A stretch of DNA of 7,873 nucleotides from the IMG/VR virus record IMGVR_UViG_2671180770_000001, positions 1-7,873 of that record; one strand, given 5' to 3'. The DNA comes from a virus (Duplodnaviria; Heunggongvirae; Uroviricota; Caudoviricetes). A model generated the notes under the pieces. The model had not been told where the DNA came from. It saw nothing but the letters and a program-made list of their open reading frames with translations, and did not search any database. Below, piece by piece: positions 1-7,260 of this stretch; position 1 is the first letter of the stretch, and every line of letters starts with the position of its first letter. Both the position numbers and the translations under genes were made by a program.

Positions 1-100
1 CCCCATCCGCCAGCACCGACATGATTCTGCTGGTGAAATCCACCATCACCACCAGAAACAGCAGGAGTGCAGCCACAGCCAGGCGCAGTTTTACCGTCAC
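1..100 (-). CDS. Partial small hydrophobic (predicted membrane) protein; N-terminal 33 codons only, continues beyond the window start
   Basis: GTG at 100..98 overlaps the TGA stop of the upstream TerB-like gene (GTGA), with GGAG about 8 nt upstream. The frame stays open to position 1 and reads MTVKLRLAVAALLLFLVVMVDFTSRIMSVLADG, with a hydrophobic stretch of about 20 residues. Not in the ORF track because it is truncated. Confidence 0.4.
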   Translation of the reverse strand, partial: MTVKLRLAVAALLLFLVVMVDFTSRIMSVLADG

Positions 101-528
101 TGGTGATTCTCCAGACGAAGACCCAGAACACCGGCAATCTCTTCCAGCACCTTGCGCTCTTCCGGCTCAATTTCGCCGTCTGCCTCCGCAATGGCCACCG
201 CCACATCCAGCACATCTTCCGCTTCACGCGTATCGTGTTTCACATCTTCAATTTCACGCAATGCCGCTCGACGACCAATTTTAAAGTTCGTATCCAGCTG
301 ACCGATAATGGTTGCGCTAATCGCATTAATTTCTGACGTAAACGCGGACAACGCAGGCTGGTTACGCAAGACCTGCTCGATCTTCGCTTTCTCTGAAGCC
401 TCACATTCACCATCTGCATAGGCCACCAGATAGGCAGCATTAATAACCGCCTGTGCCAGATCACGTTTCTCAAACTTTTTAATTTCCACTGCCGCTCGGC
501 GGGCTTTTTTACCAAAAATACCAAACAT
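97..528 (-). CDS. TerB-family (tellurite-resistance TerB-like fold) protein, 143 aa
   Basis: The track ORF 97..600 is trimmed to the internal ATG at 528, which has AAAGGAA 8 nt upstream. The protein carries two copies of the acidic ADG-x5-E-x3-(L/I) motif (AYADGECEASEKAKIEQVL and AEADGEIEPEERKVLEEIAGVLGL) that I associate with the TerB / DjlA N-terminal fold. Family assignment is from motif recognition, not a search. Confidence 0.75.
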   Translation of the reverse strand: MFGIFGKKARRAAVEIKKFEKRDLAQAVINAAYLVAYADGECEASEKAKIEQVLRNQPALSAFTSEINAISATIIGQLDTNFKIGRRAALREIEDVKHDTREAEDVLDVAVAIAEADGEIEPEERKVLEEIAGVLGLRLENHQ

Positions 529-658
529 CGTGACGTTCCTTTGGGTGGGTGAGCCAACGCCCGGGAGCGATCTGCCCACAGAGAAAGTCACACTGACCAC
601 TCCGTAAGCTCACCCCCGAAAGGCTCTGTGGTTGATATGCGCCGGGCGTGGCGCAGAT

Positions 659-696: not shown

Positions 697-771
697 TGGA
701 GCGGGTAGCGGGAATCGAACCCGCATCATCAGCCTGGAAGGCTGAGGTAATAGCCATTATACGGTACCCGC
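697..771 (-). tRNA. tRNA-Gly, anticodon UCC
   Basis: Reverse complement folds as a cloverleaf: perfect 7-bp acceptor stem GCGGGTA/TACCCGC, anticodon arm TCAGC-CTTCCAG-GCTGA, T arm GCGGG-TTCGATT-CCCGC, encoded CCA. Resembles the E. coli glyT type. Confidence 0.85.
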
Positions 772-774
772 ATA

Positions 775-850
775 TGGTGCCGGCTACCGGAATCGAACTG
801 GCGACCTGATGATTACAAGTCAGTTGCTCTACCATTGGAGCTAAACCAGC
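775..850 (-). tRNA. tRNA-Thr-like, anticodon UGU; degenerate stems, possibly impaired
   Basis: Reverse complement GCTGGTTTAGCTCCAATGGTAGAGCAACTGACTTGTAATCATCAGGTCGCCAGTTCGATTCCGGTAGCCGGCACCA. D arm GCTC/GAGC, anticodon loop CTTGTAA, T loop TTCGATT, discriminator A and CCA fit a thrU-like tRNA. The acceptor stem has two G.U pairs, the anticodon stem two mismatches and the T stem one mismatch. Confidence 0.6.
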
Positions 851-855
851 ATGTT

Positions 856-930
856 TGGCGGGACAGCGTGGACTCGAACCACGATAAGAAGGTTAACAGC
901 CTTCCGTAATGACCTTTATACGACTGACCC
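856..930 (-). tRNA. tRNA-Asn-like, anticodon GUU
   Basis: Reverse complement GGGTCAGTCGTATAAAGGTCATTACGGAAGGCTGTTAACCTTCTTATCGTGGTTCGAGTCCACGCTGTCCCGCCA. Perfect anticodon stem GAAGG/CCTTC with loop CTGTTAA, perfect T arm CGTGG-TTCGAGT-CCACG, encoded CCA. One U.U mismatch in the acceptor stem. Unlike the host-type tRNA-Asn I remember, so probably phage-type. Confidence 0.7.
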
Positions 931-984: not shown

Positions 985-1497
985 TTAAACGGTATGATAT
1001 TTCATTCTGGCTGCCTCAAAAGCCGCAGCGGCAAGTTCGGCAGTGTCATGGTATCCAAGGTTAATACACTTTCCAGACGCATTAATTCTTGCTCTCCATT
1101 TCCCGTACTTAGCATCCCAAGACACGCCACGGTATCCAGATTTATTATTCTTCTGAATTTTCCTGTTTTGCATATTTTCGGAATGAGTGACAAGACGAAG
1201 ATTTGATATCCGGTTATCTGTTCTTACCCTGTTGATGTGATCAATAAAACCATCTGGCATGGTGCCATAAACAATCAACCATGCCAGTCTGTGAGCAGGG
1301 TATGCTTTACCATTAATCATAATCATTAAATACCCATCAGAATTTATTGATGAGCATTTCTTGAAAGCAAAACGAGAGTTCCATGTCAAAGTGGTCCTCT
1401 CTCTCCCCTGCCTCCACCTCCAGTGAAAGTCGCCTGATGATGGATTGTAATCAACAACAGAAAGCACCATTTCTGGCGTTAATTTTATTTCTTTCAT
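985..1497 (-). CDS. HNH homing endonuclease with C-terminal AP2-like DNA-binding domain, 170 aa
   Basis: ATG at 1497 with AAGG upstream, stop TAA at 985..987. HNH-type motif region GFIDHINRVRTDNRISNLRLVTHSENMQNR; AP2-like segment GYRGVSWDAKYGKWRARINASGKCINLGYHDTAELAAAAFEAARMKYH. Codon usage is visibly AT-richer than the neighbouring genes. Confidence 0.8.
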   Translation of the reverse strand: MKEIKLTPEMVLSVVDYNPSSGDFHWRWRQGRERTTLTWNSRFAFKKCSSINSDGYLMIMINGKAYPAHRLAWLIVYGTMPDGFIDHINRVRTDNRISNLRLVTHSENMQNRKIQKNNKSGYRGVSWDAKYGKWRARINASGKCINLGYHDTAELAAAAFEAARMKYHTV

Positions 1498-1684: not shown

Positions 1685-1714
1685 ATTATGGCTAAATGGC
1701 TAATTGCATGTCAA
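1685..1714 (-). promoter_or_regulatory. pR'-like late promoter (putative -35 and -10; qut expected to overlap)
   Basis: Minus-sense TTGACA (1714..1709), 18-nt spacer, CATAAT (1690..1685). The -35 lies in the last codons of the Q-like gene and the -10 directly after its stop, the position pR' occupies in lambdoid phages. Confidence 0.45.
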
Positions 1715-2210
1715 GGCTTTTAACAGCAACATGCTTAACTTTCTCAACACGTTTACGCATTTTGAAAGCATTTTGCATTGGTTGGTACAAAACAAATAAT
1801 GACGCTTTCAGGATATCGTCAATTTCGTTTCTACAGGTTGCCAGTGAAGGTTTTCTCCATCCCTCGCCACCGCGTCCACACATCTTGCGTGGCTTTGCAG
1901 TCGCGTGATAGTAGGATGCAATTGCTCTCTTAGATGAACCATGAGCGTAGTAGCTGAGGAGGATGCCAAAGGCTTTCTTGTCAATGTACATGACGGAATC
2001 GACGACCTGAGAAATCAACATTCCATCATCATCATTGCACATTGGTCTTGTCATAACTCTTCCCGGCTCTACGCTCTCCATGAACTTCGCTATTACGCTG
2101 CTCATGCGCTTTTCCAGACGACCTGAATAAACCCATGCGCCCCACAGTTCAAGCCAGCCATTCAGCCAATCGTGCTGTTCTTTGGTGAGGTTTAGTTCTC
2201 TTATGCCCAT
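1692..2210 (-). CDS. Q: Late-gene antitermination protein Q (Q-family, not the lambda Q type), 172 aa
   Basis: ATG at 2210 with AAGGGAG upstream. Sits between ninG and the pR'/tR' pair. N-terminal WLELWGAWV motif resembles the ERWGAWA motif of Q proteins from other lambdoid prophages. Confidence 0.7.
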   Translation of the reverse strand: MGIRELNLTKEQHDWLNGWLELWGAWVYSGRLEKRMSSVIAKFMESVEPGRVMTRPMCNDDDGMLISQVVDSVMYIDKKAFGILLSYYAHGSSKRAIASYYHATAKPRKMCGRGGEGWRKPSLATCRNEIDDILKASLFVLYQPMQNAFKMRKRVEKVKHVAVKSLDMQLAI

Positions 2211-2253: not shown

Positions 2254-2859
2254 TCATGCGGCCTCACTTCTGCTGTTTCGCAGGTCTTTGAGTTTCTGTT
2301 GGTACTCTGCCTTGATGGCCCTGCACTCTTCGACAGTCCAGCGATGGCGGTTATGGTTTGATTCGATTTCGTCTACTGCTTCCTGCCCGATGCGGTTAAT
2401 CAGTTCGACGCGATACGGAACGAGATTTCCGCTTTTGTGCTGGTTGCACACCACGCATTGCTTGTGAATATTGCGTTCATCAAATCGGAGTTGAGGCGCC
2501 GCAGCAGTTGTCCGGTAATGTCCGGCATCCCACTGAGCAGACGTGAGCGTTCCGCACGAGATACATGGTAAGTCGCGGTCTCTTTCTCTGATGAAGGCGT
2601 TTACGGCTTGTTGGGCTTGTTTAATCCAGTAACTGCGGGGCTTTAAGGCGAGTTTTCGAATCTTAATTTTATCTTTCTGTTTCTGCTCCTCTCGTCGTCG
2701 TTTCTTCTCTGCTGTTTTTTCCGCCTTTTCGCGTTCTTTATTTCGTCGTTCGAGCGCTAATTTAGTTCCGTGTTCCGGGCTGCACCACCACTGATTTGAG
2801 AATGCCGGGTGAAACCATTCCTTACAGATTTTGCATTTCCTTCGCGCTGGTTTAGCCAT
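2254..2859 (-). CDS. ninG: NinG (Rap) recombination-associated protein, 201 aa
   Basis: Translation ([39 protein letters not shown]...[30 protein letters not shown]) is nearly identical to lambda NinG as I recall it. GGGGAGG upstream of the ATG; the start overlaps the upstream stop (TAATG). Confidence 0.93.
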
Positions 2860-3587
2860 TAAGCAGCCTCCCCTGTTACTTTAAGCATTCCGTTATCTAG
2901 CAGCTTTCTTGTCAGCCACTGTTGACCACGCCCGGTGATTTTTGTGGTGAACGATATCTGTATTCCGTGATTTGTGTTGACCGCTGTTTCTTTCACTGTG
3001 AAATAGCCACGATCCATATATTCCTGCATTGGCACATTGCGCCGGGAGCCTGAAGCAATAAGGATTTTGTGATCGCGCATCCACGCAAACAGTTTGTTTG
3101 GACCAATACCAACAACCTTTGCAAAGTTTCCAATCAAAATTCTGCTGGACTCGCCAACGCGATCGGCAAACTCAACTTTAGGTGCTGCGAGAGCAAGCTG
3201 TTTCTCCAGTTCAGCCTTCTGGCCTTCAAGGTCGGCCGCAAGGCGCAATGCCTCAGAAAAGGTTTGTGGTATTTTCGCGGTTGCCCCTTCGAGTTCTCGC
3301 CAGCGGTCAACAAGGCGAGCGGTGAATTCCGGCGACAACTGGGCAACGACAATAATGCTGTCGCGCTTACCTTGTTCGCCCTCAAAAACGTAAGCCTCTA
3401 CGCCACGAAGTAATCCTAAGTTATTGATTTTTTCGAAAACCACCATTGGGGGATTTCGGATCACACCTCGAACCGCCAGTCGTTCAATGGATTGTTTCAC
3501 CTTGTCATGACGACTTCCCACCAACTCAGCGATTTCAATGCTTGTCATTTTGATGACGTTGCTATTTATCAGCTCGTTCATTGTCAT
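2859..3587 (-). CDS. Rha-type N-terminal / KilAC (ANT) C-terminal antirepressor-like DNA-binding protein (Roi-like), 242 aa
   Basis: ATG at 3587 with GAGAGGA upstream. N-terminus ...[24 protein letters not shown]... resembles the Rha family; the C-terminal half resembles the phage antirepressor KilAC domain. Translationally coupled to ninG. Confidence 0.7.
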
Positions 3588-3610
3588 GTCCTCTCATATT
3601 GAAAATTCAG

Positions 3611-3638
3611 CAATAAAAAACCCAGCCGAAGCTGGGTT
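3611..3638 (-). terminator. Rho-independent terminator between the ORF6N gene and the Rha-like gene
   Basis: Minus-sense AACCCAGC-UUCG-GCUGGGUU (8-bp stem, UUCG tetraloop) followed by UUUUUUAUUG. Confidence 0.7.
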
Positions 3639-3655
3639 TGTTAAGTTGTCAATTG

Positions 3656-4342
3656 TCAGTAGCGATGCAGTGAAGGCGGCAACTCTTTGTTCTTAAGCCT
3701 TTCCCATGCCAGAAGGTTCGTCGGCCCGTCAGGCTCATAAATATCTATATCCCGCGTGTGATTAATTAAAACGCCCCTCGCCCTCCCGATGATATACGAG
3801 AACTCATAGCCGTAGTCGTGGCATATGCCGGAATAGCCAGACTGAATCAGTTTTAATGCGGGATACAACTCACGGAACAATGCCTGTGAGCGGTTGGCAT
3901 AATCCCATAGCCATACAAGGCTGTCTGTTTCTTTTGCGGAAAGCCCGTTGGGCTTCTTCTCTTGTTTGCCAGTATTTTTCTCGCACTGGCTGAAATAGCA
4001 GTCTTCCAATTTTTCGAACACTTCCCACGCCTGATCGGTTTCTAGCATTTTTGCGTGGCGGGCTGCGCCTCGTTCTGTCCAGAGGATGAGCGAGCGGGTT
4101 TTGGGAGAGATTTTCACCTCATTTTGCGACTCGTTTAAAACTAGTCGCAAATTTCTGAGTTCATCACCAACAGCTTTAAAGAAGTGCTTTCCCTCAATAA
4201 ACCGAGATTTATTTTCATGGTGATTCTGCTGTATACGGATTGTTTCTGTTCCATAAAGGCGGGCAAGCAACTCAGTTGTGATTACCGGAATCTGGTTATA
4301 GGTAACAGGGGAAAGGTTTTTGACAGAGATTTGAACAGTCAT
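3656..4342 (-). CDS. ORF6N (KilA-N-like) domain protein with uncharacterised C-terminal domain, 228 aa
   Basis: ATG at 4342 with GAGG 7 nt upstream. The N-terminal ~120 aa contain [16 protein letters not shown] and [31 protein letters not shown], matching the ORF6N pattern (FxEGKHYF ... LWTExG). The C-terminal ~100 aa are not recognisable to me. Confidence 0.7.
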
Positions 4343-4383
4343 AACGACCTCGCGTTTCGATAATTTTTACCTCACCACCTTTA

Positions 4384-4474
4384 GGTGCTAATCATCGTGG
4401 TGGCGAACTGTGCGGGGTTAGCACTACCGGTCGAAACATCCGGCGAGCCTTTCGGCTCCCCCACACAGCCCGCC
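4384..4474 (-). promoter_or_regulatory. Candidate structured RNA / regulatory element upstream of the ORF6N gene
   Basis: Arms 4402..4417 and 4459..4474 form a 16-bp stem in minus-sense RNA (13 Watson-Crick plus 3 G.U); the same three positions are A.C or C.A mismatches on the plus strand. It encloses a GAGCC-GAAA-GGCUC hairpin (GNRA loop, 4445..4458) and a CCGG/CCGG hairpin (4427..4443). GGTGCTAATC at 4384..4393 recurs at 4549..4558, with an inverted copy of GTGCTAA at 4418..4424. Confidence 0.3.
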
Positions 4475-4503
4475 ATAAATCGCGAATGTGACTGTGCTTA
4501 GCG

Positions 4504-4527
4504 CATAAAAAAACCGCCAGCGCGGTT
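4504..4527 (-). terminator. Candidate rho-independent terminator downstream of ninE (tR3/tR4-like)
   Basis: Minus-sense AACCGC-GCUG-GCGGUU (6-bp stem) followed by UUUUUUUAU. Confidence 0.5.
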
Positions 4528-4617
4528 ATGCACCGTTTCGATATCCGGGGTGCTAATCCCGACGCCAGATTTTGCTGGCGTGCGAGGAATATAGCCCCGA
4601 ATAAATCATCGCGTCAA

Positions 4618-4800
4618 TCACCTTGTTTTCCTCGCACGATGTCTTAGCCACCGGATATCCCACAGATGAGCCGTGTAATTGAAGGTTTTTACGTCAGATT
4701 CTTTTGGGATTGGCTTGCGTTTATTTCTGGAGCGTTTCGTTGGAAGGTATTTGCAGTTTTCGCAGATGATGTCGGTGAAACTTCGTCGCTGTCGCCTCAT
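4618..4800 (-). CDS. ninE: NinE, 60 aa
   Basis: Internal ATG at 4800 of track ORF 4618..4890, overlapping the Dam stop (ATGA). Translation [60 protein letters not shown] matches lambda NinE as I recall it. Confidence 0.85.
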
Positions 4801-5324
4801 GCCGCCCTCCTGACGCCCTGCCCGATCGCCATCAATGCCGCTTTGGATACGGTAGTAAACATCCGTCGAGGACTGATGAACGGTCGCCAAATCAGCAGCA
4901 TGGAGCCTTTACTGTTTCCCTTCTTCTCCAGCCCTGTCGATGGTTCGATAAAATTAATCCGTCCATCAGTGATAATGCGAACTTCGTCGACACTCTCCAG
5001 AGCCTTGCTGAACCATCCGACTGACATATCCTCTGGCACAAGCATAACTACCGTCTGTCGCTGTTGTATGCACTGCTCAGCGGCTTTTTCCACCCACGGC
5101 CTGATATTGCTGTACGGTGGGTTATTCCAGATTGCACCGTGGCTTACCCACTCAGAATTGAGCGCGTCGTCGGCCTCAGTTAGCCAGTGAGCACACAGAG
5201 CATTTTTGTCGCTCGCTGCCGAATCCAGCCAGAATCCAAACTCAATATCCAGTGCATCAAAAAGCCAAAGCGGCGTTTGCCAGCAGTCCTTGTCGTGTGC
5301 TGGCGTATTTGATTTGATAGTCAT
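4797..5324 (-). CDS. Phage orphan DNA N6-adenine methyltransferase (Dam family), 175 aa
   Basis: N-terminal [11 protein letters not shown] and the catalytic NPPY motif ([14 protein letters not shown]). ATG overlaps the ninB stop (ATGA). It occupies the slot held by ninC in lambda. Confidence 0.85.
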
Positions 5325-5767
5325 GCAGCCCTACCTTTTCGTTGTGACCATTCATACTCTCGCCGGGAGTCATCACTCCACCGCACGTTGCGCTCTGAGC
5401 CGAACCAGAACATGATTTCGATAAGCTCAGTCATGCTGGCCTTCCGCATTTTTCTGGTACGCACGCCAAGCATGACAACGCCACCGTCGATACCAGGCAC
5501 ACTTCGTTGCTCCAGTTTTTTGGTCTTAAGCCACAGGGCAGTGAACAGGTCTTTCCAGTCTTCCGGCGCCAGCCGTTGACCATGCCATAGCACCTGACGC
5601 GAAACATCGTTCAGCATCGGCCACATGCGGTCATTCTGCGCTTTGCTGCGCCTGGGTTCTTTAACGTGGACTTCGTGGGGTGACTTGTCGTCGATGGGTA
5701 GTGAGAGAATGGCGTCTATGGCGTTATTTCTGATTGCTTCGTTGCGAAGCAGAAAGGCTTGCTTCAT
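5321..5767 (-). CDS. ninB: NinB (Orf-family recombination mediator), 148 aa
   Basis: Track ORF 5321..5869 trimmed to the ATG at 5767, which has GGAGAG upstream. The segment ...DRMWPMLNDVSRQVLWHGQRL...[19 protein letters not shown] is collinear with lambda NinB. Confidence 0.88.
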   Translation of the reverse strand: MKQAFLLRNEAIRNNAIDAILSLPIDDKSPHEVHVKEPRRSKAQNDRMWPMLNDVSRQVLWHGQRLAPEDWKDLFTALWLKTKKLEQRSVPGIDGGVVMLGVRTRKMRKASMTELIEIMFWFGSERNVRWSDDSRREYEWSQRKGRAA

Positions 5768-5960
5768 CTCCTGCTCTCCGGTTCCATTTTTCAGCCGCCG
5801 CAGCAACTGATGGTGCCCATGCCCCCCTGGCTTCACAGAGGTCACATTCTGCATAGCCCCACACATCAATATTTATTCCGGCCTCAACCCACAGACGAGC
5901 ATTACCGCCGCAAAACGGACATTCTTTTAGCTTTGGCTGGGTTAATGATAGGTCGCTCAT
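5724..5960 (-). CDS. Lar-family restriction-alleviation-like zinc-ribbon protein, 78 aa
   Basis: Internal ATG at 5960 of track ORF 5724..6167, with AGGAG upstream. CPFCGG...C..C zinc-ribbon motif (KLKECPFCGGNARLWVEAGINIDVWGYAECDLCEARGAW). The 3' end overlaps the ninB start by 44 nt in another frame. Confidence 0.55.
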   Translation of the reverse strand: MSDLSLTQPKLKECPFCGGNARLWVEAGINIDVWGYAECDLCEARGAWAPSVAAAAEKWNRRAGDEASLSASQRSNQK

Positions 5961-5970
5961 GCTCGCTCCT

Positions 5971-6186
5971 TCACTTAAAATCCAGACTCCGGATAATTCT
6001 GTTGCGCTGAAACTCATTGTTGAGTTTGAACAACCGTCGAAGAACACGGTCACGCGGATAGCGTCGTGCGGCAGGTGAATGCTCATACAACTCATCAAGC
6101 GGCAAACTGGACGATGAACGATACCGATACCAACGCACCAACTCTTCACGAAAATTAGCCCTGACAAGCTCAGCTATCGTACTCAT
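5971..6186 (-). CDS. Hypothetical small Arg-rich protein, 71 aa
   Basis: ATG at 6186 with GGAGG 9 nt upstream; first gene after the tR2-like terminator, stop 10 nt before the Lar-like start. No family recognised. Confidence 0.5.
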   Translation of the reverse strand: MSTIAELVRANFREELVRWYRYRSSSSLPLDELYEHSPAARRYPRDRVLRRLFKLNNEFQRNRIIRSLDFK

Positions 6187-6271: not shown

Positions 6272-6562
6272 TCATCTTTTAACTCCATATACCGCCAATA
6301 CCCGTTTCATCGCGGCACTCTGGCGACACTCCTTAAAAATCAGGTTCGTGCTCACCTTTCCTTCCCGTTCTTCCCTGGTAGCAAACCGGTAATACACCGT
6401 TCGCCAGACCTTACCATCAATGACAAGGATTCCTGCCCGCGCCATTTTAGCCGCAGCCTGATTTATACTGGTTACGGTTGCGCCTGTTAGCGCGGCAACG
6501 TCCGGCGCACAGAAGCTATTATGCGTCCCCAGGTAATGAATAATTGCCTCTTTGCCCGTCAT
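6272..6562 (-). CDS. ren: Ren (Rex-exclusion escape protein), 96 aa
   Basis: Translation MTGKEAIIHYLGTHNSFCAPDVAALTGATVTSINQAAAKMARAGILVIDGKVWRTVYYRFATREEREGK... is near-identical to lambda Ren as I recall it. ATG overlaps the P stop (ATGA). Confidence 0.9.
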   Translation of the reverse strand: MTGKEAIIHYLGTHNSFCAPDVAALTGATVTSINQAAAKMARAGILVIDGKVWRTVYYRFATREEREGKVSTNLIFKECRQSAAMKRVLAVYGVKR

Positions 6563-7260
6563 ACACTTGCTCCTTTCAGTCCGAACTTAGCTTTAATTTC
6601 TGCGATCTTCGCCAGAGCCTGAACATGATTTAGAGGTCTGCCGCCCATGACAGGAAGTTGTTTTACTGGTTCAGGAATCACCTCACCACGGTTAATTCTC
6701 GCAGTCATATGGACAAGCTCATCTGCGGCCTTGCGCCGTAATTCCGCGTCAGTCAGCGCATTGGCCCGCATGTTCTGGTACAGGTTGGTAACCAGCCAGT
6801 AGTGCGCGTTCGATTTCCACGGATAAGACTCTGCATCCGGATACAGGCCTCGCTTCCGGCAATACTCGTAAACCATATCAACCAGCTCGCTGACGTTTGG
6901 CAGTCCGGCGATAACGGATGCTTCTTCCCGGCACCATGCAACAAACTGCCCGGGTGATGGAAGAAATGGTCGATTCTGCCGACGGGCTACGCGCATTCCT
7001 GCGTTAACCTGTTCCATCGAGGTGATCCCGTTTTCCCGGAAAGCCAGAACCCACTGGCGGCGGATTTCATTCAGTTCGTTCTGGTCCCGGTTAGCCAGAC
7101 TCGCCGGGAAAGTTGCCAGTAACTGGCTGAACACACCGTTGATGATCTGCGCTACCTGTTGTACCTGCGGCTTTTCGTCGTACTGTTCCGGCATGTTGTT
7201 GGTGATCCGACGCATCTGCTCACGGTCAAAGTTAACCATCTGTGCGGCGATGTTTTTCAT
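6559..7260 (-). CDS. P: Replication protein P (DnaB helicase loader), 233 aa
   Basis: Translation MKNIAAQMVNFDREQMRRITNNMPEQYDEKPQVQQVAQIINGVFSQLLATFPASLANRDQNE... is near-identical to lambda P. ATG overlaps the O stop (ATGA). Confidence 0.95.
   Translation of the reverse strand: MKNIAAQMVNFDREQMRRITNNMPEQYDEKPQVQQVAQIINGVFSQLLATFPASLANRDQNELNEIRRQWVLAFRENGITSMEQVNAGMRVARRQNRPFLPSPGQFVAWCREEASVIAGLPNVSELVDMVYEYCRKRGLYPDAESYPWKSNAHYWLVTNLYQNMRANALTDAELRRKAADELVHMTARINRGEVIPEPVKQLPVMGGRPLNHVQALAKIAEIKAKFGLKGASV

Follow-up and report, generated by a model that had tools for sequence, protein, structure and literature searches.

The ninE–ninG interval

The window, as we call the whole 7,873-nt stretch of viral DNA analysed here, holds two genes between ninE and ninG, all read from the minus strand (Table 1). 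The first, ant, lies with a set of upstream elements in what we refer to as the cassette, and the second is a Roi-like gene. The preliminary description of this DNA had correctly called the open reading frame of ant and its neighbours, NinE upstream and NinG downstream, but had counted a single gene in the interval, to which the ORF listing and Pfam add the Roi-like gene. It had also pointed to a comparison of the interval with related prophages, and VT2-Sakai indeed carries these genes in the same position, in the order ninE-[isrK/C4]-ant-roi-ninG. The Q gene lies further downstream in the window than the cassette.

Table 1. Features of the cassette and its neighbours, in 5' to 3' order of the minus strand
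Feature	Position	Strand	Basis or remark
NinE gene	4800..4618	minus	upstream of cassette; Pfam
Sigma-70-type promoter, TTGACG-18 nt-TATATT	4588..4617	minus	10/12 consensus matches
IsrK-like sRNA, 75 nt	4507..4581	minus	Rfam RF01394 isrK, 75.8 bits (gathering score 50)
IsrK hairpin 1	4581..4562	minus	fold; compensatory stem changes across cassettes
IsrK hairpin 2, loop carries a1	4561..4546	minus	fold
Site a1 (UUAGCAC), IsrK hairpin-2 loop	4550..4556	minus	exact reverse complement of C4 a'
Site b1 (UCGAAAC), IsrK	4535..4541	minus	complementary to C4 hairpin-II loop b'
IsrK intrinsic terminator, AACCGC-GCUG-GCGGUU + U-run	4505..4527	minus	terminator scan, Rfam isrK 3' end
C4-type antisense RNA	4396..4480	minus	Rfam RF01695, 75.1 bits (gathering score 45), full model 1-87
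Upstream ORF, 31 codons	4381..4476	minus	AUG at foot of C4 stem; ORF listing
b' (GUUUCGA), C4 hairpin-II loop	4431..4437	minus	unpaired in MFE and Rfam structures; complementary to b1, b2
a' (GUGCUAA), between C4 hairpin II and closing stem	4418..4424	minus	unpaired in MFE and Rfam structures; complementary to a1, a2
Site a2 (UUAGCAC), ant leader	4385..4391	minus	complementary to C4 a'
GGUGGUGA box, between a2 and b2	4372..4379	minus	GGTGG[TC]GA in nearly all cassettes
Site b2 (UCGAAAC), ant leader	4354..4360	minus	complementary to C4 hairpin-II loop
ant Shine-Dalgarno GAGG	4348..4351	minus	5 nt before AUG at 4342; direct reading
ant	3656..4342	minus	228 aa, ATG start; ORF listing
ORF6N domain of Ant	aa 12-99, nt 4309..4046	minus	Pfam, E 4.8e-21
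P22 Ant C-terminal domain of Ant	aa 125-228, nt 3970..3659	minus	Pfam and P22 Ant alignment
Intrinsic terminator 3' of ant	3611..3639	minus	9-bp stem AAACCCAGC-UUCG-GCUGGGUUU then U-run; terminator scan
Rha/KilAC "Roi-like" gene, 242 aa	3587..2859	minus	ORF listing and Pfam
NinG gene	2859..2254	minus	downstream of cassette; Pfam

The gene product is an Ant-type antirepressor

Pfam confirmed the N-terminal ORF6N domain of the preliminary description and assigned the C-terminal region, which had been considered unassignable, to P22_AR_C (PF10548; aa 128-200, E 3.8e-24). Over its last 104 residues the protein shares 83% identity with P22 Ant (residues 197-300 there), which carries P22_AR_N (PF10547) at its N-terminus where the window Ant has ORF6N. 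The PHROG 377 profile "anti-repressor Ant" matches the protein end to end (residues 1-228 against profile positions 1-213, E 7.8e-84) and VT2-Sakai Ant is 83% identical to it. In addition, NCBI holds a 100% identical E. coli protein, and the identical and near-identical E. coli proteins there carry the name "phage antirepressor Ant". The whole protein therefore belongs to a known antirepressor family, a placement that the preliminary description had itself named as grounds for refuting its reading, and is not functionally obscure as had been supposed; judged by its sequence, it is an ordinary phage antirepressor of the Shiga-toxin-phage type.

Other searches with Ant gave little: no match was found in NCBIfam, and a sequence search of the PDB returned nothing credible (top E-value 0.11, syncytin). 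AlphaFold2, run on an alignment of 25 close homologues, produced a poor model with a mean pLDDT of 51.5, a pTM of 0.38 and values of ~33-55 in the C-terminal half. All 120 homologues among the matches listed were at least 79% identical to Ant, so that this set is too shallow for an improved alignment.

An IsrK-like sRNA and a C4-type RNA precede ant

The promoter in Table 1 begins one base past the ninE stop codon, with transcription predicted to start at ~4581, and it was the sole promoter-like site found in 3400..4900. Both of its hexamers are conserved in 86 related cassettes, in which the spacer length varies. The Rfam isrK match has its first position at 4581 and its 3' end at the terminator that closes the RNA, and the c4-a1b1 family (RF03163; 50.0 bits, gathering score 46.7) matches 4594..4542. 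All three families, isrK, c4-a1b1 and C4, score above their gathering scores and stand in the correct order and on the correct strand directly 5' of ant. The cassette is thus a self-contained transcription unit with its own promoter.

The preliminary description had bracketed ant between two rho-independent terminators and both are real, each a stem followed by a T-run in the terminator scan (stems 4527..4512 and 3639..3618). However, the upstream one is the terminator of IsrK and lies between the cassette promoter and ant; therefore, it does not insulate ant from the nin operon.

The leader is structured and repeat-bearing, as had been noticed earlier. C4 folds into a 17-bp closing stem around two hairpins, with b' in the loop of hairpin II and a' in an unpaired stretch of 8 nt, at a minimum free energy (MFE) of −49.1 kcal/mol (z = −5.95; none of 200 shuffles was equally stable). 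CCA comes directly after the 3' strand of this stem (GCCA-CCA-CG). In P1, C4 is excised from its precursor by RNase P, and by comparison with P1 this end of the stem is compatible with an RNase P substrate.

Two repeats in the leader are complementary to unpaired segments of C4

The a and b sites in Table 1 were labelled by analogy with the P1-type nomenclature. The 10-nt repeat GATTAGCACC, which contains a1 and a2 and is the reverse complement of the GGTGCTAATC given in the preliminary description, occurs exactly twice on the minus strand (4558..4549 and 4393..4384), and a second exact 10-nt repeat, TATCGAAACG, contains b1 and b2 (4543..4534 and 4362..4353). For either repeat, two matches were obtained in 0/200 shuffles. 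In IsrK, a1 and b1 are close together, the latter in the linker, and in the ant leader a2 and b2 are 24 nt apart. In the window b2 ends 2 nt from the Shine-Dalgarno sequence of ant and leaves it uncovered. The preliminary description had proposed a protein-binding assay (EMSA) on the first repeat; C4 is encoded between the two copies, and they are target sites of C4.

We compared these sites among related cassettes. Of 85 unique cassettes, 84 carried a reverse complement of a' both in IsrK and 3' of C4, even though a' itself has six alleles that differ at four positions. The hairpin-II loop has about a dozen alleles, and b2 overlaps the Shine-Dalgarno sequence itself in most of them. A match of this loop of 6 nt or longer was seen with the Shine-Dalgarno-proximal site in 80% and with IsrK in 58% of 84 cassettes, compared with 0.5% and 0%, respectively, in mismatched controls. 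Because the repeats are reverse complements of the unpaired C4 segments and co-vary with them in ~85 cassettes, they point to RNA–RNA pairing and not to a protein operator.

Duplex energies were a weaker guide. With shuffle tests that used the unpaired C4 segment only, the bipartite C4–IsrK duplex was predicted at −23.2 kcal/mol, which 2 of 1000 shuffles equalled, and the duplex of C4 with the ant leader at −16.8 kcal/mol, which 70 of 1000 equalled and which is unremarkable on energy alone. IsrK is thus the better predicted partner of C4. An equally good chance duplex with the C4 segment was found at about 6873..6893, and energies of whole-length C4 duplexes, either with the leader or with IsrK, were uninformative. 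Because the leader duplex is ordinary and an equal one arises by chance elsewhere, the case for pairing rests on covariation and not on energy.

Allowing one G-U pair, the GGUGGUGA box is the complement of CGCCACC (4405..4399), the 3' strand of the C4 closing stem, with which it co-varies (GCCACC with GGTGGCGA), and it may have a role in alternative leader structures. As a second target of C4 it was rejected, the true partner of the hairpin-II loop being the UCGAAAC at 4360..4354.

The upstream ORF stops short of ant

Only 53 nt separate the end of C4 from the ant AUG. The stop codon of the upstream ORF (UAA, 4383..4381) lies 38 nt 5' of this AUG, and the ORF listing of the window contains no AUGA overlap or icd-type coupled ORF, that is, none that ends at or overlaps the ant start. 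Length and stop position of the upstream ORF vary widely among cassettes, an approximate result because detection of the ant start failed for some, and it is probably not a conserved protein. For orf45 of Gifsy-1, likewise, the nucleotide sequence is conserved and the protein sequence is not (PMC4825925). Since the upstream ORF ends 38 nt before ant, the Gifsy-1 mechanism is not transferable unchanged to the window.

Comparison with known systems

The closest relatives of the window ant are those of the Stx-phage group, namely VT2-Sakai ant, Phi24B ant, phage 2851 antB and Min27 Ant. They share the ORF6N plus P22_AR_C architecture, the location in the ninE–roi interval and the leader elements, and Phi24B Ant stands in the same relation to P22 Ant as the window protein does (82% identity over the last 104 residues, PMC3064807). 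VT2-Sakai differs in a 16-aa indel after residue 74 of Ant and in RNA specificity, with a = UUGGCGU and a hairpin-II loop of UCGGUUU, where the window has a = UUAGCAC and b = UCGAAAC. Moreover, an annotated orf34 overlaps the ant start in VT2-Sakai, whereas the window has no overlapping ORF.

In Gifsy-1, the isrK-orf45(STnc1160)-anrP locus likewise contains an IsrK with its own promoter and a leaky terminator, a C4-like processed RNA and an ORF6N antirepressor (PMC4825925); read-through in the window is putative. The ORF6N domain of the window Ant is 79% identical over aa 1-119 to a protein of a Gifsy-1-like Salmonella locus, and 62% identical to that of phage Gifsy-1. The Salmonella locus reads AntQ-isrK-C4-187-aa ORF, with an AnrP-type protein at the matching position. 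Compensatory mutations proved that the middle of the Gifsy-1 IsrK pairs with the C4 region (PMC4825925). However, the C-terminal domain of AnrP is unrelated to that of the window Ant, the Gifsy-1 cassette lies just downstream of antQ and not between ninE and roi, and orf45 overlaps anrP (AUGA) and is required there (PMC4825925), whereas the upstream ORF of the window stops short.

The immI locus of P1/P7 (c4-icd-ant1/ant2) has the same geometry. C4 is co-transcribed with its target, c4 is flanked by complementary sites, a1/b1 on its upstream and a2/b2 on its downstream side, the latter located at a ribosome-binding site, and the antirepressor gene comes next. Allelic differences in the pairing sequences are also found there, and give heteroimmunity. 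P1 is a plasmid prophage and the window a lambdoid one, in which the upstream target segment, with a terminator of its own, makes up a distinct sRNA (IsrK). The window also lacks an icd-like coupled ORF, so that b2 abuts the ant ribosome-binding site directly. By Pfam, the window protein contains ORF6N and P22_AR_C only.

P22 Ant, encoded at immI (mnt-arc-ant, sar RNA), is similar in its C-terminal domain as described above; it binds to repressors, both c2 and heterologous ones, and inactivates them (PMC3064807). The P22 gene is controlled by the Arc and Mnt proteins and the cis-antisense sar RNA, whereas the elements in the window are C4 and IsrK, and it adjoins the tailspike gene, whereas the window ant is in the nin region. 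Finally, the P4 CI RNA with seqA/seqC is also a processed small RNA co-transcribed with two flanking complementary target sites, and the authors of the Gifsy-1 study regarded IsrK as a structural homologue of the SeqA RNA (PMC4825925). P4 CI works by terminating transcription of replication genes and its system lacks an antirepressor gene, and the top Rfam match of the window RNA is C4.

Discussion

The locus is very probably an antirepressor cassette of the immI type, inserted in an E. coli lambdoid prophage between ninE and its roi-like gene. We propose, with a probability of roughly 80%, that its C4/IsrK module silences and releases Ant in the following way. The promoter (4617..4588) would be constitutive and yield the 75-nt IsrK-like sRNA, stopping at its own terminator, while read-through transcripts would run on through C4 (4480..4396) into ant, as N-antiterminated pR transcripts probably also do during induction. 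C4 would then pair through a' with a2 (4391..4385) and through the hairpin-II loop b' with b2 (4360..4354) in the ant leader, and this pairing beside the Shine-Dalgarno sequence would block translation of ant in the lysogen; it is because b2 abuts the Shine-Dalgarno sequence that we propose ant to be translationally silent there. The IsrK-like sRNA, offering the same sites as a1 and b1, would be a decoy that titrates C4 and turns ant on, and Ant would bind and inactivate the CI-type repressor of the prophage, the gene of which is located outside the window, so that induction becomes faster or is triggered.

The present analysis establishes what the RNA and protein elements are, how the sites are arranged, that these sites co-vary among cassettes and that the promoter is conserved. 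From P1/P7, Gifsy-1, P22 and Phi24B we infer that C4 represses, that IsrK acts as an anti-antisense RNA, that C4 is processed and that Ant binds a repressor. In the summary of Citron & Schuster 1990 given in PMC12197685, the c4 RNA of P1/P7 pairs around the ribosome-binding site and blocks ant expression. In Gifsy-1, IsrK supplied in trans raises translation of anrP more than 100-fold and AnrP induces the prophage (PMC4825925), and Gifsy-1 lysogens transcribe the homologous RNAs in every condition tested (PMC7067206). Phi24B without ant shows pR' expression after induction of ~27-56% of wild type, and its Ant affects induction partially and superinfection not at all (PMC3064807).

C4 pairing could instead act mainly on transcription, which is how P4 CI/seqA-seqC works and, in part, P1 as well: transcripts would end prematurely at the IsrK terminator or, through Rho, ahead of ant. 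A terminator does stand between the promoter and C4, and Biere, Citron and Schuster are said to have found in 1992 that C4 of P1 reduces ant transcription via polarity. IsrK in trans also raised a transcriptional fusion of Gifsy-1 8-fold, and the P4 analogy was discussed there (PMC4825925). However, the translational effect in the same system was 139-fold (PMC4825925), b2 is at or on the ant Shine-Dalgarno sequence in nearly all alleles, which points to translation, and the mediator of polarity, an icd-like coupled ORF, is absent in the window. We consider mainly transcriptional control unlikely.

It is equally improbable, in our estimate, that Ant leaves the repressor of its own phage alone and instead targets, in trans, other prophages or satellites in the cell (cross-induction), or inhibits growth like some KilA/Bro proteins. 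P22 Ant inactivates heterologous repressors and deletion of ant in Phi24B causes a partial induction defect only (both PMC3064807), Gifsy antirepressors work in trans on other prophages (PMC3121763), and some single contigs carry cassettes of different alleles. Against this, homologues contribute measurably to the induction of the prophage that carries them (PMC3064807, PMC4825925). Action in trans and action on the own prophage are not mutually exclusive.

A further possibility is control of the Gifsy-1 type, in which Ant would need translation of the upstream ORF starting at 4476 and IsrK would open the ribosome-binding site of that ORF instead of the one of ant. The start codon at 4476 stands where orf45 has its first AUG (transcript nt 107), which is required in Gifsy-1 (PMC4825925), and VT2-Sakai retains an annotated ORF overlapping the ant start. 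On the other hand, the upstream ORF of the window has no AUGA overlap and the 38-nt gap follows it, its length and end point vary widely among cassettes (approximately determined, as noted), and ant has a good Shine-Dalgarno sequence of its own. Processing of C4 of the RNase P type, extrapolated from P1, would also strip the AUG from the mRNA. Such control thus seems rather doubtful for this class. That the cassette is an independently regulated moron encoding an accessory DNA-binding regulator of the ORF6N/KilA-N kind, with the repeats as protein operators, is very improbable: it fits the own promoter, the terminators on both flanks, the place of ORF6N in the KilA-N/Bro-N group of putative DNA-binding domains and the expression of homologous RNAs in lysogens, but both repeats exactly reverse-complement unpaired segments of C4 and co-vary with them in ~85 cassettes, and the whole protein lies in an antirepressor family with experimentally studied members.

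Returning to the C4/IsrK module, the independent regulation suggested by the preliminary description thus holds in that the unit has its own promoter; this unit is a known immunity cassette and not an obscure moron. It serves the phage as a secondary module for immunity and induction and is no moron for lysogenic conversion. Previous work has already described the protein family, the two RNA families and this arrangement of genes, and E. coli genomes carry an annotation for the identical protein; the locus therefore carries little weight as a discovery. For annotators of the nin region, the "structured leader" before ant should be read as an IsrK/C4 antisense module and not as operators. Because antirepressors influence the readiness of Shiga-toxin and other prophages for induction, the diversity of pairing-site alleles and the absence of an AUGA-coupled upstream ORF in this class may merit the attention of specialists.

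On the first point we offer a tentative idea, which we hold to be possible but short of likely. The reassorting C4 alleles, of which a' has at least six and the hairpin-II loop about a dozen, could be an RNA-coded second layer of immunity and cross-induction specificity among co-resident lambdoid/Stx prophages and decide which incoming or resident phage expresses Ant in a polylysogen; with it goes the suggestion that the class of the window may occlude the ant ribosome-binding site directly, without coupling to an upstream ORF, as a mechanistic sub-type. The allele pair of the window, GUGCUAA with GUUUCGA, is a minority among the cassettes.

Gene order and the Ant protein

The window corresponds to the early-right (nin) part of a lambdoid prophage of E. 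coli. Searched as a whole, it is most similar to mosaic E. coli prophages (94–98% identity across 81–90% of the window). Pfam gave no matches for the 186-aa and 96-aa ORFs. The interval between ninE and ninG had been described as holding a single gene, but it actually carries two. The 228-aa ORF named in the preliminary description is present, and directly past its terminator lies a second antirepressor-like gene, whose 242-aa product has a weak Rha match at the N-terminus and a strong KilAC/ANT domain at the C-terminus (1.2e-32), and matches PHROG 63 "anti-repressor Ant" (3.4e-93); its VT2-Sakai counterpart is annotated as roi. Two regulators in tandem therefore occupy the ninF slot.

Features of the window in order of transcription
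Feature	Position	Strand	Remarks
Unassigned ORF, 186 aa	7817..7257	minus	lambda gene O slot, by position only
Replication protein P	7260..6559	minus	
Unassigned ORF, 96 aa	6562..6272	minus	
Lar-like ORF, NinB, Dam methylase		minus	in that order between 96-aa ORF and NinE
NinE	4800..4618	minus	directly before the ant leader
c4-a1b1 motif	4594..4542	minus	Rfam, 50.0 bits; overlaps isrK
isrK	4581..4507	minus	Rfam, 75.8 bits
a1 (UUAGCAC)	4556..4550	minus	loop of IsrK hairpin 2
b1 (UCGAAAC)	4541..4535	minus	within IsrK
C4 antisense RNA	4480..4396	minus	Rfam, 75.1 bits
b' (GUUUCGA)	4437..4431	minus	exact complement of UCGAAAC
a' (GUGCUAA)	4424..4418	minus	exact complement of UUAGCAC
a2 (UUAGCAC)	4391..4385	minus	past C4
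b2 (UCGAAAC)	4360..4354	minus	ends 2 nt before Shine-Dalgarno
ant Shine-Dalgarno (GAGG)	4351..4348	minus	AUG at 4342
ant, 228 aa	4342..3656	minus	
Rha/KilAC protein, 242 aa	3587..2859	minus	after ant
NinG	2859..2254	minus	
Q	2210..1692	minus	
HNH_3/AP2 endonuclease, tRNA genes, TerB-domain ORF		minus	last in order, past Q

The ORF6N domain recognized earlier in Ant was recovered by Pfam (aa 12-99, E 4.8e-21), and the C-terminal region, previously left unassigned, is P22_AR_C (aa 128-200, E 3.8e-24). Over residues 125-228 the protein shares 83% identity with residues 197-300 of the P22 antirepressor, which has a P22_AR_N + P22_AR_C architecture. Conversely, the AnrP-type protein of a Gifsy-1-like Salmonella locus has an ORF6N domain 79% identical to that of the window Ant, whereas its C-terminus is unrelated. 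P22 Ant, as outlined in PMC3064807, binds and inactivates repressors, and AnrP induces Gifsy-1 (PMC4825925); each half of the window protein is thus shared with a protein whose derepressing activity has been shown by experiment. The gene can no longer be called functionally obscure, because its product matches PHROG 377 "anti-repressor Ant" over the full length (E 7.8e-84). This product is 83% identical to the Ant annotated in VT2-Sakai, where the ninE-ant-roi-ninG order is the same. The protein itself was already known, as NCBI contains an E. coli protein 100% identical to it, and the identical and near-identical proteins are named "ORF6N domain-containing", "P22AR C-terminal domain-containing" or "phage antirepressor Ant". 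In the Stx phage Phi24B, whose Ant represents the family closest to the window Ant, deletion of ant reduced late-promoter activity after induction to ~27-56% of wild type and left superinfection unaffected (PMC3064807). A PDB sequence search with Ant found no related solved structure, and its AlphaFold model (mean pLDDT 51.5) was too poor for use.

Sixteen residues of the VT2-Sakai Ant are missing at codons 62-78 (about 4159..4109), within a short imperfect repeat (LRVALNYSQN / LRVTLSNSQN). Lengths in the Ant family range from 224 to 278 aa, so the linker within or following ORF6N varies in length.

Leader RNAs and covarying pairing sites

Three curated Rfam families, all above the gathering score, lie on the coding strand between ninE and ant. 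The feature belongs to a known type of system, the antirepressor cassettes that lambdoid and Stx prophages keep under antisense-RNA control. A single promoter-like site was found in the scanned region (TTGACG-18-TATATT, 4617..4588), and it is placed exactly where the start of the IsrK RNA would need it; both hexamers are kept in 86 related cassettes while the spacer varies freely, as expected of a working promoter. A terminator scan recovered the two terminators reported earlier (4527..4512 and 3639..3618; a T-run follows each), but the one regarded as upstream sits downstream of the cassette's own promoter. The proposal of an independent transcription unit stands in part: in Gifsy-1 lysogens the homologous RNAs, IsrK and STnc1160, are abundant in every condition tested (PMC7067206), which supports pR-independent transcription at least for the RNAs.

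The C4 fold is far more stable than shuffled controls (z = -5.95). Two segments stay unpaired in it: AUGUUUCGA, the loop of hairpin II, where b' lies, and the AGUGCUAA stretch, which holds a'. The repeat noticed earlier, GATTAGCACC, is exact (4558..4549 and 4393..4384; two copies in 0/200 shuffles), and a second exact repeat had been missed, TATCGAAACG (4543..4534 and 4362..4353). We labeled the a and b sites by analogy with P1. The repeat noticed earlier had been treated as a protein-binding site, which we judge to be wrong, since both repeats are complements of the unpaired C4 segments and covary with them across cassettes. In IsrK, a1 and b1 are only 8 nt apart. The bipartite C4-IsrK duplex (-23.2 kcal/mol) was equalled by 2/1000 shuffles and the C4-leader duplex (only -16.8 kcal/mol) by 70/1000; duplex energy by itself is weak evidence for pairing.

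We collected 86 unique cassettes by a pattern scan of viral contigs and from loci encoding relatives of Ant. The reverse complement of a' was found both in IsrK and downstream of C4 in 84/85 scorable cassettes. Because this match is retained across six a' alleles differing at four positions, the changes are three-way compensatory, and comparing the window with VT2-Sakai gives a direct example of such a change in a', a1 and a2. About a dozen alleles of the hairpin-II loop occur. Stretches of 6 nt or more with Watson-Crick complementarity to the loop were present in the SD-proximal region of 80% and in the IsrK of 58% of cassettes, as against 0.5% and 0% when loops were paired with targets of unrelated-loop cassettes. 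For most alleles, b2 and the ant SD overlap (e.g., TACAAAGG, TAAAAGG or TAAGAGGA). The a and b alleles reassort among cassettes. The identities of the elements, their geometry and their covariation are directly observed.

Two C4-ant cassettes are present on some viral contigs. In one (L070) they start at offsets 2170 and 3756 of its minus strand, 1.6 kb apart, and their a' alleles differ (GTGCTAA and ACGCCAA); the two alleles also differ in L133, whereas both cassettes of L052 have the same allele. A conserved GGUGG(U/C)GA box between a2 and b2 (4372..4379, minus strand) is complementary to, and covaries with, the 3' strand of the C4 closing stem (GCCACC with GGTGGCGA), and may form an alternative structure competing with that stem.

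The IsrK/C4 antirepressor cassette is portable. ORF6N genes are immediately preceded by IsrK with C4, or by the related sRNA-Xcc1 model, at 16/20 loci scanned in enterobacterial and other genomes, and the downstream proteins of the collected cassettes join an N-terminal ORF6N, Bro-N or Rha to several different C-terminal domains. At seven loci (L005, L008, L009, L011, L012, L016 and L018) from Serratia, Brenneria, Entomohabitans and Arsenophonus, the C4 slot is matched instead by Rfam sRNA-Xcc1 (RF02221, 58-78 bits), some 40-130 nt ahead of the ORF6N gene. This suggests that the sRNA-Xcc1 family is related to C4 and has the same function.

Proposed control of ant

We infer the regulatory outcomes and the target of Ant from the anatomy of the window, combined with the P1/P7 model and with experiments on Gifsy-1. 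The c4 RNA of P1/P7, which is co-transcribed with its target, blocks ant expression by pairing around the ribosome-binding site (Citron & Schuster 1990, as summarised in PMC12197685), and c4 allele differences lead to heteroimmunity. In Gifsy-1, the operon is driven by the IsrK promoter and the read-through mRNA, from which STnc1160 is processed, is translationally silent; IsrK in trans raises anrP translation >100-fold, and its middle pairs with the C4-like region, as proven by compensatory mutations (PMC4825925). In the window, the promoter would mostly yield a terminated IsrK-like sRNA, with C4 and ant carried on read-through transcripts, and C4 would occlude the ant RBS by pairing with a2 and b2. 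IsrK is proposed to titrate C4, because a1 and b1 are close together and IsrK is the better predicted C4 partner; ant would then be released, and Ant would inactivate a CI-type repressor and promote induction.

Gifsy-1 orf45, which starts at an AUG at the C4 stem foot and shares an AUGA overlap with anrP, must be translated for AnrP to be made (PMC4825925). In contrast, the window equivalent (4476..4381, 31 codons) ends 38 nt ahead of the ant AUG, in the interval from a2 to the GGUGGUGA box; ant has a good SD of its own, and P1 icd has no counterpart in the window. From these sequence features, direct RBS occlusion looks more likely than uORF coupling. It is a tentative idea, which we hold somewhat less probable than its opposite, that the specificity of cross-immunity or cross-induction between prophages sharing a cell is encoded in the reassorting a'/b' alleles, and that the allele class of the window works without uORF coupling.

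Other genes in the window

A Lar-type restriction-alleviation ORF (5724..6167, minus strand; 147 aa as listed, with the domain at aa 79-132) precedes ninB. A 170-aa HNH_3 + AP2-domain endonuclease gene (985..1497, minus strand), located between Q and the tRNA genes, looks like a homing-endonuclease-type insertion. Rfam detected three tRNAs (930..859, 850..778 and 771..700) and ARAGORN only two, tRNA-Asn(GUU) at 930..856 and tRNA-Gly(UCC) at 771..697; the middle one (49 bits, minus strand) may be an atypical or degenerate tRNA. Downstream of the tRNAs is a TerB-domain ORF of 167 aa (97..600, minus strand).
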